Below the pieces are notes generated by a model that ran no database searches, was not told the DNA's origin, and saw nothing but the letters and a program-made list of their open reading frames with translations. From a virus (taxonomy: Duplodnaviria > Heunggongvirae > Uroviricota > Caudoviricetes), in the IMG/VR virus record IMGVR_UViG_2703718815_000003: DNA of 64,000 nt, one strand, 5' to 3'. A program made the translations under genes and the position numbers. Below, in pieces: positions 59,852 through 61,170 of the stretch; positions within the stretch are counted from its first letter, which is position 1; every line of letters starts with the position of its first letter.

Positions 59852-59938
59852 TGGCGGAGAGTAATGGAATCGAACCATCATCGCTTGCGCAATGGGACGG
59901 TTTTCAAGACCGCTTGAGCACCATGCTCCCTACTCTCC
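59852..59938 (-). tRNA. tRNA-Ser (anticodon UGA), long variable arm
   Basis: Acceptor GGAGAGT/ACTCTCC, anticodon loop CTTGAAA, T-loop GGTTCGATTCC, encoded CCA; D-arm atypical. Confidence 0.6.
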
Positions 59939-60151
59939 AGTTGTTGTGGTGCCGGGGGCTTCCCGGTGTCCTTTGGCTGGTTATCCACCGTGGACGGAGC
60001 CAATAGTCATCACAAAGGATCAATATAACCATTTCCCCGCGTGCGCTTAGCCGCATTCACCACAACGAAAAGAGCACTGTATGACGTTTGCACGGACTTA
60101 CGCTTAAAACAGGGCAGTCTCGGCGGTTCTCAATGCTCTTTCCTGTTGTGT

Positions 60152-60227
60152 TGGTGCCGGTTAACGGATTCGAACCGCCGACCATTCGCTTACAAGGCGA
60201 CTGCTCTACCAACTGAGCTAAACCGGC
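60152..60227 (-). tRNA. tRNA-Thr (anticodon UGU)
   Basis: Acceptor GCCGGTT/AACCGGC, D-arm TAGCTCAGTTGGTAGAGCA, loop CTTGTAA, T-loop GGTTCGAATCC, CCA. Confidence 0.75.
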
Positions 60228-60231
60228 AATT

Positions 60232-60318
60232 TGGTGGGGAGTGATGGAGTCGAACCACCCGAGTCGCAATGACAGTAGATTTACAGTCTACACCGCTACC
60301 TCTACGGACTAACTCCCC
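60232..60318 (-). tRNA. tRNA-Tyr (anticodon GUA), long variable arm
   Basis: Acceptor GGGGAGT/ACTCCCC, anticodon stem-loop GTAGA-CTGTAAA-TCTAC, T-loop GGTTCGACTCC, CCA. Confidence 0.75.
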
Positions 60319-60323
60319 TAAAT

Positions 60324-60398
60324 TGGCGATGGTGGGTGGATTCGAACCACCGACCAGTTGGTTAACAGCCAACTGCTCTACCGCTGAGCTACACCATC
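60324..60398 (-). tRNA. tRNA-Asn (anticodon GUU)
   Basis: Acceptor GATGGTG/CACCATC, D-arm TAGCTCAGCGGTAGAGCA, anticodon stem-loop GTTGG-CTGTTAA-CCAAC, T-loop GGTTCGAATCC, CCA. Confidence 0.75.
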
Positions 60399-60399
60399 A

Positions 60400-61170
60400 A
60401 TTCGGCACTGCCAGTATTTATTACTCAACAGTGCCAATCGCGACGGTTTAGTTTCTGCCAGGAAACGCACCGCTACTTGCACTTTTCGTTAGTGCCAGAC
60501 GCTTTCGACTTCGCTCAATAGTAGAAGGCAAAATCTTTAAGTAGATGATGTTTCTGAGGACAGCACCTACTTTGTAATTTATACAATGTGATGTATGGAA
60601 TCATTTGTTGTGAAAACAGGCACCAATGGCAACAGTGGTTAAACCTACACAACAATCCTGTCTTCACAACGTTGAGGCCACTACTCCGATTGAATGTTTG
60701 CCCAACATGTTACATATCAACGCTCGCCGGTATCTCTGTGAATAGAACCTTAGAATTGATAAAAATGTAATGGCCTCAACGTTGTGTGCTGGCTAACCAT
60801 ACCAGCCGGGCTACGTCGCCGCTTTTTAACCCAGTATAAACGACATAATTGAACAAAATGACGTAACAGGATGGGCGGTCAGAGGCTAAGAATCCGGGAG
60901 TCATATGGAGTTGAAAATATACCGACCGCCCATTCTGTTACTTCATCGGAGGGAACACTCATGTTCCCTCCTGCGTTCTGCAATCACACTCGCTCAGTGT
61001 GTCCCATTTCGGTAACGAGGCTGGAAACTGACCTCGCTGGTGTTTGGCTTATTAGGCTACTGCCAGATAGACTTCTTCGTTTGCACTTGTATTTAAGTTC
61101 AAACAGTCGCGTCTCAACGAAAACAAAGTCATCTTATACATAAAAGATAAGTAAGTAAATACTTATTATT
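60400..61170. other. ORF-poor structured region upstream of tRNA array
   Basis: About 770 bp without credible ORF; several 9-10 bp stems; copy of GATGTATGGAATCATTT motif near 60589. Confidence 0.4.
61146..61166. promoter_or_regulatory. class II palindromic motif
   Basis: gataagtaagtaaatacttat. Confidence 0.45.

Follow-up and report, generated by a model that had tools for sequence, protein, structure and literature searches.

What does a phage keep in a tRNA cluster besides tRNAs? The question is raised by the 64,000-nt sequence IMGVR_UViG_2703718815_000003 (hereafter the window, whose coordinates are used throughout), a caudoviricete record in which positions 61165-59675, read on the minus strand, form an RNA operon of ~1.49 kb without a credible open reading frame (ORF). 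Over the 1,501 nt that were searched, the window and E. coli plasmid CP099286.1 are 100% identical; Escherichia phages Cyrano and CMS-2020a are 97-98% identical to the window, and Salmonella phage SSU5 is related. Together, the perfect match and this kinship mark the window as part of an SSU5/pHCM2-type phage-plasmid of E. coli, whose full length is 110 kb. Along the minus strand, the operon runs from an operator/promoter motif through an RNA of ~730 nt, tRNA-Asn, tRNA-Tyr, tRNA-Thr, a long-stem cassette, a small RNA (sRNA) resembling STnc100/PasD and tRNA-Ser to a 20-bp hairpin and two terminators. The tRNA array itself is ordinary, and our interest lies in the RNAs around it. Transfer-messenger RNA (tmRNA) and SmpB form the main bacterial ribosome-rescue pathway, which is also a drug target. 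We propose, at what we judge to be an even chance, that the locus is a protein-free RNA operon with a mimic of the tmRNA template that masks the tag of the host and presents its own; the arrangement suggests that the phage may block or rewrite the ribosome-rescue tagging of its host.

The tag module and its likeness to tmRNA

The 5' end of the long RNA holds a compact tag module (60967-61126), composed of a leader, a tag frame, a hairpin (H5), a pseudoknot (PKa) and a further hairpin element (PKb), which a covariance model of compact modules only (R1) matches over its full length with 78.5 bits (E 4e-15). Following the context AAAUACAAGU, the frame at 61049-61084 reads GCA AAC GAA GAA GUC UAU CUG GCA GUA GCC UAA UAA and would specify the peptide ANEEVYLAVA followed by two stops. 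H5 (61066-61037), a predicted hairpin, presents the stop codons in its loop; PKa (61036-61002) is kept in the window, and PKb (61001-60984) is there a hairpin for which a second stem of no more than 3 bp is possible. The A-U-A context, the GCA resume codon, the stop codons in the H5 loop and the predicted H-type pseudoknots downstream of the tag all recall tmRNA (SsrA; RF00023, permuted RF01849, RF01850, RF04321), whose frame in E. coli is set by A84-U85-A86, and the E. coli SsrA tag, ANDENYALAA, is similar to that of the module and likewise 10 codons long.

The way in which the tag varies between phages points to a sequence that is read as codons. A pattern scan of IMG/VR yielded the consensus A-N-[DE]-[EDNT]-x-[YF]-L-A-V-A-stop in 29 DNA and 22 peptide variants on more than 120 contigs, with synonymous switches (GAU/GAC, GAA/GAG, UAU/UAC, UUC/UUU and GCA/GCC/GCU), no indels, an aromatic residue at position 6 specified by four different codons, and A-U-A at positions -6 to -4 of the tag in most lineages. 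In a metagenome scan that left tag and stop unconstrained, an in-frame stop stands at codon 11 in 49/49 true homologues, as TAA, TGA or TAG. To judge by this variation, the tag is under coding-type constraint. A conventional micro-ORF, read either in the +1 frame (xUG-CAA-ACG...UAG) or from an in-frame near-cognate start, might be invoked in its place, as the compact modules have UAA-AUG right before the tag, in the +1 frame, with GUG in the window. We consider this explanation hardly credible: the start is AUG, GUG or CUG depending on lineage and has no Shine-Dalgarno sequence, the +1 peptides differ non-conservatively (KKSI, KIRT, MSNS, IMFF, TLST) whereas the GCA frame is conservative, and in frame with the tag the upstream region has no conserved start codon and is interrupted by frameshifting indels of 1-2 nt and by occasional stops.

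The fold around the tag is conserved as well. In an alignment of 39 distinct compact modules from unrelated phages, 96% of cells pair compared with ~40% when the partners are slid, and the observed score is reached by 0/500 shuffles. Compensatory changes affect 9 pairs, including both stems of PKa and the first stem of PKb, and in the helices of H5 and of the two downstream pseudoknots every cell pairs (100%). PKb has had its second stem replaced wholesale with complementarity kept, as in GCCC/GGGC, GCCCUGA/UCAGGGC, GGCGGGAG/CUCCCGCC and GCCCAC/GUGGGC. BLAST searches with the first 160 nt of the long RNA retrieve ~320 phage records outside the SSU5 group. The module is found in unrelated phage families, sometimes under a promoter of its own: in the tRNA clusters of Felixounavirus and Mooglevirus, between pR'/qut and the late terminator in HK620, upstream of tRNA-Ser in Klebsiella siphoviruses such as Carvaje, and in an Aeromonas phage. 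The module is also present in 135 of 5,426 complete E. coli chromosomes, and no annotation of it was seen in the records inspected. In the relative L051, foreign sequence (3492-3794) is inserted just past it.

What the module does not have is the other half of a tmRNA. ARAGORN, Rfam and tblastn searches, which covered the window plus the 46 kb of CP099286.1 outside it, detected neither a tRNA-like domain nor SmpB; for the latter, tblastn over the window gave a best E of 5.9 and no SmpB-like ORF, with an approximate SmpB query. At E <= 1, Rfam finds no tRNA- or tmRNA-like element beyond the four tRNAs in the window and the rest of the plasmid, T-loop motifs in stem context occur only in these four tRNAs, the long RNA, like the rest of the plasmid, has no CCA end or G3:U70 helix of a tRNA-like domain, and the plasmid holds no separate acceptor piece (T-arm, 3' acceptor strand, CCA) of a two-piece tmRNA. 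A weak Rfam match to beta_tmRNA at 61001-61103 (17.3 bits, gathering score 84) has counterparts in relatives, where tmRNA_permuted (29.8 bits against 47), alpha_tmRNA (20.8 against 50) and tmRNA (15.2 against 47) all stay far below gathering and are confined to the tag part. Compared with the 360 nt of tmRNA, the module is ~160 nt long and is without acceptor stem, T-arm, CCA and pseudoknot 1; its tag ends in LAVA, an ending found in 0/120 enterobacterial ssrA copies, and its leader is antisense to tmRNA. With the tRNA-like domain missing, it fails as a tmRNA on the defining part, with template features such as the tag frame in place. As far as its sequence goes, then, the tag module lacks a tRNA-like domain and is not a tmRNA.

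A self-sufficient but derived phage tmRNA, with an acceptor part that is unrecognizable or split between, for example, the ~570-nt extension of the long RNA, T-arm-bearing cassettes or a separate piece, is in our estimation improbable. In Felix-like phages, ARAGORN does build this tag into a permuted tmRNA, a call echoed in a genome announcement (PMC4319497), some neighbouring cassettes carry GGUUCGAnUCC T-arms, a permuted tRNA-like element occurs in Citrobacter phage Mijalis (L082), and RNAalifold pairs a 5' CGCG with a 3' CGCG beside a GCGG/CCGC stem in the long RNA. Set against this, the T-loop, CCA end and G3:U70 helix are absent as described, the T-arm cassettes are variable and do not occur in the window, the antisense leader would be left unexplained, and a curated survey, which lists phage tmRNAs from mycobacteriophages, Bacillus phage G and the tRNA-like-domain-only DS6A, contains no such phage tmRNA (PMC4131195). 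The proposed long-range closures, 5' CGCG/3' CGCG and CAGAACG/CGUCUG, show no variation or one-sided variation only.

The ARAGORN call itself dissolves on inspection. The program reports a tmRNA neither in the window, nor in the other 46 kb of the plasmid, nor in the tag-bearing loci save the Felix-like ones, and there it pieces the tRNA-like domain of the permuted tmRNA together from the 5' portion of a real tRNA-Lys and a T-arm fragment that lies far off, beyond three intervening tRNAs; because the two derive from unrelated pieces, we reject the call as proof of a complete tmRNA. It is the source of the 'ssrA' reported in Felix O1-like genome announcements (PMC4319497, PMC4392139). The element of phage Mijalis (L082 1978-2045) is a circularly permuted tRNA-like structure within a 427-nt gap of the tRNA cluster, in the order T-arm, acceptor 3' strand ACCCUUC with GCCA, AACA, and the matching 5' strand GAAGGGU with a D-arm-like hairpin.

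A leader complementary to host tmRNA

The leader of the module (61101-61124) is antisense to tmRNA, for which we used the genuine K-12 ssrA sequence as target. GUUUUCGUUG (61124-61115) is complementary to tmRNA nt 95-104, corresponding to tag codons 3-5, and GCGACUGUUU (61110-61101) to nt 82-91, or -8 to +2 of the resume codon; the predicted duplex comprises two 10-bp helices flanking a 4x3 loop, and the RNAduplex optimum lies at tmRNA 81-105. The combination of an exact 8-mer with a collinear 9/10 block was obtained in 7 of 20,000 shuffles. In the compact modules the antisense is more extensive and spans tmRNA nt 54-108, which takes in the 3' strand of pseudoknot 1; strict alignments place their leaders against tmRNA 67-106 with z = 5.5 to 12, and the duplexes, of -42 to -50 kcal/mol, are beaten by 0-1 of 200 shuffles; the leader scores z = 6.2 in the Felix-like module, 4.3 in L120 and 7.0 in L143. 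The optimal duplex covers tmRNA nt 81-105, that is, the resume site and the first tag codons, in 10/10 lineages tested. Furthermore, the leader complements AUAGUCGC and GACGAAAACU of the host and not AUAAAUGC and GAUGAGCAAU of the module itself, and its paired blocks coincide with the invariant 5' blocks of the module. Of the same 120 enterobacterial ssrA copies, which were collected from prophage flanks, ~115 carry the target blocks. The rest of the transcript shows no above-chance complementarity to tmRNA, and global RNAduplex comparisons of whole modules with tmRNA were no better than shuffles and hence uninformative.

This complementarity is the best-supported functional feature of the module, and it could in principle be its whole purpose: a pure anti-tmRNA RNA or decoy would bind tmRNA or template-recognizing proteins and shut down or titrate trans-translation, with a frame that is inherited or structural and never decoded. 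In cell-free systems, release mediated by tmRNA is routinely suppressed with a complementary oligonucleotide (PMC3384345), the missing tRNA-like domain fits such a role, and the phage RNA of DS6A, which consists of the tRNA-like domain only, has been proposed as a tmRNA inhibitor (PMC4131195). We nevertheless regard a decoy as rather unlikely, as it leaves unexplained the kept stop, the aromatic residue at position 6, the fixed length, the A-U-A context and the GCA resume codon; a leader of 40 nt would suffice for it, yet H5 and the two pseudoknots are conserved and covary.

We favour a template swap, in which the phage RNA docks over the resume site of host tmRNA to form a hybrid two-piece tmRNA that yields ...LAVA tags, because it accounts for the antisense leader and also for a frame that looks translated although no tRNA-like domain accompanies it; we offer it tentatively, short of an even chance. 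RNase P would cut the precursor at the tRNAs, and RNase III or RNase E would probably cut at the long stems. The tag RNA would then anneal to the single-stranded template region of host tmRNA and mask the template for ANDENYALAA. As the duplex would be antiparallel, the phage RNA would exit beside pseudoknot 1, and ~16-20 nt past the duplex its AUA context and GCA codon would lie roughly at the native template start. With the phage resume context emerging beside pseudoknot 1, host tmRNA-SmpB and phage RNA could act as a hybrid two-piece tmRNA, to which the host would contribute the alanine, the tRNA-like domain and the setting of the frame and the phage RNA the message, and stalled proteins would end up tagged ...LAVA in place of ...ALAA.

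Several observations weigh against the proposed mimicry and swap. The native template begins 11 nt after pseudoknot 1, and the phage linker, at ~16-20 nt, would be longer; no equivalent of pseudoknot 1 was found upstream of the tag in the module; and we know of no natural tmRNA template supplied in trans by base pairing. In the window, the antisense amounts to 2 x 10 bp, with a duplex energy that is not significant (z -0.3), nor is it significant in a lenient Smith-Waterman alignment with G-U pairs, a test that has no power because shuffles score as high as the real sequence; the significance of the window antisense derives from the two-block test and from homology to the compact modules. RNAcofold gains are modest and noisy (-8.5 kcal/mol for the window module, -3.9 for the Felix-like one), as pseudoknots are not modelled, and give weak support at most. 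A consensus sigma-70 scan calls no promoter at 61133-61138, where the operon has a -10-like hexamer. Finally, the pMT1 sRNAs sR082 and sR083 of a Y. pestis sRNA-sequencing paper map elsewhere (near ymt and an IS256) and provide no expression support for the long RNA.

The long RNA, the tRNAs and the Thr-Ser gap

Behind the tag module, the long RNA continues as a structured extension of ~570 nt (60399-60966) that is specific to SSU5-like phage-plasmids. The first-pass annotation had described an ORF-free region of ~770 bp upstream of the tRNAs, and the stretch preceding tRNA-Asn indeed measures 778 nt (60399-61176) with only short, overlapping and unconserved ORFs. It had also noted multiple stems in the regions flanking the tRNAs. 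These exceed chance, with the 732-nt upstream RNA folding at -256 kcal/mol (z = -8.1 compared with shuffles) and the Thr-Ser gap at -79 kcal/mol (z = -4.2); the upstream stems, however, belong to one long conserved RNA and not to small hairpins. Its further suggestion, that the flanks might encode additional stable RNAs co-transcribed with the tRNAs, agrees with an ORF-free course between promoter motif and terminators, with compensatory pairs and with the STnc100 match, and appears to be right.

The extension was compared in an alignment of 23 non-identical relatives (A1), for which RNAalifold gives 124 pairs. The 120 pairs tested, which include most of these and the hand-added second stem of PKa, are formed in 99.3% of cells compared with 33-45% when partners are slid; compensatory changes occur in 13 pairs, and the observed covariation is reached by 0/500 shuffles. 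Among the best-supported helices are a hairpin at 60971-60948 with five covarying pairs, a 24-bp hairpin at 60946-60858, another hairpin at 60806-60788 and a 19-bp long-range stem spanning 60786-60665, and the alignment further contains an invariant block, AAUGAUUCCAUACAUC (60605-60590), a conserved hairpin, GCACU-AACGAAA-AGUGC (60495-60479), and a clade-specific hairpin (60435-60404). No Rfam match at E <= 10 falls within 60399-60966. On plasmids of 247 of the 5,426 complete E. coli genomes the extension is present, unannotated in every listed hit, and the long RNA is carried by 773 PLSDB plasmid records from clinically important Enterobacteriaceae. By these comparisons, the extension is a conserved RNA not described before.

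Searched against E. coli genomes, the extension matches only SSU5-like plasmids and one spacer, and no chromosomal RNA target. The spacer match covers 33 nt (60766-60798) with 100% identity to a sequence annotated as CRISPR (clustered regularly interspaced short palindromic repeats) on E. coli chromosome NZ_LR778147.1 (1705873-1705905), which looks like a host spacer aimed at the long RNA gene. The conserved hairpin at 60479-60495 shows AACGAAAAG in and beside its loop, which resembles the tmRNA target ACGAAAAC, with AACGUAAAG in the SSU5 clade; the minimum-free-energy fold pairs the region of this hairpin with the anti-tmRNA leader, and AACGAAAAG could pair with the leader in cis. Two relatives depart from the common plan. 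On Y. pestis plasmid pMT1 (L256, NZ_CP009702.1, 1501-1968) the RNA ends after ~470 nt and abuts caf1R (1980-2885) of the F1 capsule locus, so that the capsule genes appear to have been inserted into the long RNA gene; tag module and promoter are kept. In L120, a distant SSU5-like relative on the minus strand (tag ANDTQYLAVA), an ORF of ~75 codons replaces the long-range stem ~440-670 nt past the tag and no tRNA-Asn follows the RNA; the tag module, two hairpins and the AAUGAUUCCAUACAUC motif are kept.

Upstream of the RNA, a partly palindromic operator/promoter motif, TAAGTATTTACTTACTTAT (ATAAGTA..TACTTAT; 61147-61165), is kept in all SSU5-like relatives, and it is followed in every one of them by TATAAGAT, which is invariant in their alignment and holds the -10-like hexamer TATAAG (61133-61138). 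The operator-like pattern TA[AG]GTAT[AT]TAC[CT]TA..TAT has 4 matches in the window compared with 0.05 expected; further sites are at 23393-23411 (minus strand), just upstream of a Dam methylase gene, and at 37628-37651 (both strands), upstream of an SbcD-like nuclease gene, and the motif is probably an operator or promoter shared by the RNA operon and genes of DNA metabolism. As the sigma-70 scan makes no call here, we infer the putative transcription start, at ~61125-61130, from the position of these elements. At the other end, two intrinsic terminators were read from the sequence, UUGCUA-N6-UAGCAA with U6 at 59737-59711 and GGGGC-UUCG-GCCCC with U5 at 59693-59675; the second is bidirectional and was called by the scan on the plus strand.

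Across the 78 related loci fetched for comparison, the 778-nt non-coding stretch stays together in a single block with the upstream gene and with tRNA-Asn, which starts ~765-780 nt past the stop of that gene. The leader and tRNA-Asn block is 70-75% identical across SSU5-like plasmids of Escherichia, Salmonella, Klebsiella, Enterobacter, Citrobacter and Yersinia, and occurs also in Kluyvera and Buttiauxella. In almost all relatives tRNA-Asn is the constant partner of the long RNA, 4-8 nt behind it, and in SSU5-type relatives the 20-bp hairpin and the terminator region come directly after it; the arrangement in the relatives thus points to a backbone of long RNA, tRNA-Asn, hairpin and terminator. 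The Tyr-Thr-cassette-Ser part is confined to the E. coli clade and appears there as an accessory insertion. Upstream of the operon lie an ATP-dependent DNA ligase gene and small genes whose function is unassigned. Convergent with it is a 373-aa ORF (58382-59503, plus strand) with a hydrophobic segment at its N-terminus; this ORF hits no Pfam family but does match PHROG 18168 (unknown function), and it shares the bidirectional terminator with the operon.

ARAGORN finds in the 64-kb window exactly the four minus-strand tRNAs read in the first pass, with the same coordinates and no cryptic fifth gene: tRNA-Ser(UGA) at 59852-59938, tRNA-Thr(UGU) at 60152-60227, tRNA-Tyr(GUA), with a long variable arm and limited to the E. 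coli clade, at 60232-60318, and tRNA-Asn(GUU) at 60324-60398. Rfam (RF00005, gathering score 29 bits) agrees on Thr (69.5 bits), Tyr (41.6 bits) and Asn (75.5 bits), and the best Rfam match of the long-arm tRNA-Ser is the clan member tRNA-Sec (44.6 bits, gathering 47). The sequences were also said to differ from the E. coli isoacceptors, as they do: on the chromosomes of all 5,426 complete E. coli genomes, the Asn-Tyr-Thr block finds nothing closer than tRNA-Lys and tRNA-Val genes, which are non-cognate and ~80% identical, from which it follows that the window tRNAs are not host isoacceptors. Of the Thr codons in 42 window ORFs, 28% are ACA, and of the Ser codons 21% are UCA, about twice the shares of these codons in E. 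coli. We infer that the tRNAs serve codons favoured by the element (ACA, UCA). Asn and Tyr tRNAs are targets of known anticodon nucleases, and the window tRNAs may replace those lost to such enzymes; it is a plausible, though speculative, idea that tRNAs and tag module have in common a part in dealing with stalled ribosomes. In L051, the downstream tRNA (4317-4391) is tRNA-His(GTG) in place of tRNA-Asn(GTT), by one anticodon change in an Asn-type tRNA.

The Thr-Ser gap, put at ~200 bp in the first pass, measures 213 nt (59939-60151) and folds into two domains. The first, cassette X (60067-60143), has a predicted 13-bp bracket stem, AAAGAGCAUUG/CAGUGCUCUUU, around a 51-nt variable insert. The bracket sequences CACAACAGGUAAGAGCAUUG ... 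CAGUGCUCUUUCCGUUGUG flank variable inserts beside tag modules in HK620, Carvaje, Felix-like and many other phages, where they could form helices of ~18-20 bp; we read them as possible processing stems, recombination linkers or both. The insert of cassette X also occurs in L110, where it adjoins the tag module with no tRNA-Thr nearby. Within the insert, GAACCGCCGA (60120-60129) is perfectly complementary to UCGGCGGUUC (60172-60181) in the variable-loop/T-stem region of tRNA-Thr, and positions 60079-60087 of the cassette hold GUGCAAACG, the same motif as at the tag start, followed by an open frame of 14 codons (ANVIQCSFRCGECG and a stop) without tag-like features; this motif is probably a remnant or a coincidence.

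The second domain (59943-60066) folds into four hairpins with a 9-bp closing stem, GUUGUGGUG/CACCACAAC (inverted repeat I4), and matches the STnc100/PasD family (RF02076; bioRxiv 10.64898/2026.05.13.724894) over the full model (1-206) with 41.3 bits (gathering 47; E 5e-7 on 2.2 kb and 1.5e-5 on 64 kb), a match that overlaps the first 23 nt of tRNA-Ser. It shares with the family the same closing stem and the terminal CCGGG..CCCGG hairpin, and as STnc100/PasD are prophage sRNAs, so the window element lies in an RNA-rich phage region beside tRNAs; unlike them, it scores below gathering, is followed by a tRNA and not by a terminator, and resides on a phage-plasmid. We regard it as a borderline candidate for a new member of this known family. 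The preprint on the Pas sRNAs does not mention tmRNA. Klebsiella phage Carvaje shows the uninterrupted order tag module, cassette, STnc100-like element and tRNA-Ser; the tag module of the window is parted from the cassette and the elements behind it by the 570-nt extension and by three tRNAs.

Could all this be an ordinary tRNA operon with non-functional spacers, made of leaders and trailers, decayed tRNAs, recombination scars or DNA elements such as an origin or protein sites, with stems of importance for processing only? The Thr-Ser spacer does range from 8 nt in Cyrano, which has no cassette, to ~670 nt among plasmids that are otherwise 95-99% identical (L001, L003-L038, L063), the brackets recur at cassette junctions and could be recombination linkers, and several elements look tRNA-derived. 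The Thr-Ser position, by this variation, behaves as a putative swap site for RNA cassettes. For the operon as a whole, we find such an explanation distinctly improbable: different genera retain the 730-nt RNA, whose long-range helices show compensatory changes and whose single-stranded parts include invariant blocks, the tag module is retained in the unrelated phage families named above, and the gap matches an sRNA family known from several transcriptome and quantitative PCR studies.

Directly after the CCA end of tRNA-Ser comes a hairpin with a 20-bp stem and a 38-nt loop (59772-59849; inverted repeat I2). The first pass had placed an inverted repeat of 15 bp with a 40-bp spacer here (59782-59850); the repeat exists, with longer arms of 20 nt each (59772-59791 and 59830-59849) that are 95% complementary and 38 nt apart. 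The hairpin shares its first 12 nt, CACA(A/G)CGUUGAG, with the long-range stem at 60786-60665 and is possibly a processing stem of the RNase III type.

Relation to known systems and biological meaning

Before, the tag module had surfaced only in Felix O1-like phages, under an 'ssrA' label taken over uncritically from ARAGORN (PMC4319497, PMC4392139). Their 'ssrA' is the same module, with the tag ANDNVFLAVA and two stops, inside a tRNA cluster, and the announcements treat it as an ordinary tmRNA gene, whereas we find no tRNA-like domain, a wider spread and an anti-tmRNA leader. In the literature searched, we found none of these three features, namely the missing domain, the spread over lambdoid prophages, siphoviruses and SSU5-like phage-plasmids, and the leader; none of four specific LAVA tag peptides; and no natural RNA that targets or reprograms tmRNA.

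Two systems come close. DS6A likewise has a tmRNA-derived phage RNA that keeps one half and is proposed to interfere with trans-translation (PMC4131195), yet it keeps the tRNA-like half and the module the mRNA-like half; Bxz1-type phages carry complete tmRNAs. The anti-ssrA oligonucleotides used in ribosome display and in cell-free systems target the same tag-template stretch and suppress release (PMC3384345), but they are man-made DNA without a template, whereas the module would be a natural RNA leader fused to a replacement template. Among RNAs that accompany phage tRNAs, the tRNA cluster of phage T4 resembles the locus in its small structured RNAs.

These T4 RNAs, species 1 and 2, are stable, ~120-140 nt long and co-transcribed and co-processed with the tRNAs; unlike the module, they have no known likeness to tmRNA. 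Some phages, such as lambda-immP22 hybrids and Mu, depend on tmRNA.

On a conservative reading, the tag module and the 570-nt SSU5 extension each represent a new family of conserved RNA, and the locus corrects the 'ssrA' label of Felix O1-like phages. If host tagging is blocked or rewritten, it would represent a new kind of phage-host interaction at the ribosome, explain structured RNAs that travel with phage tRNA genes, and offer a natural design for tmRNA inhibitors or programmable tags. A template swap and tRNAs combined in one operon would, if true, constitute a toolkit against ribosome stalling during infection or plasmid carriage.

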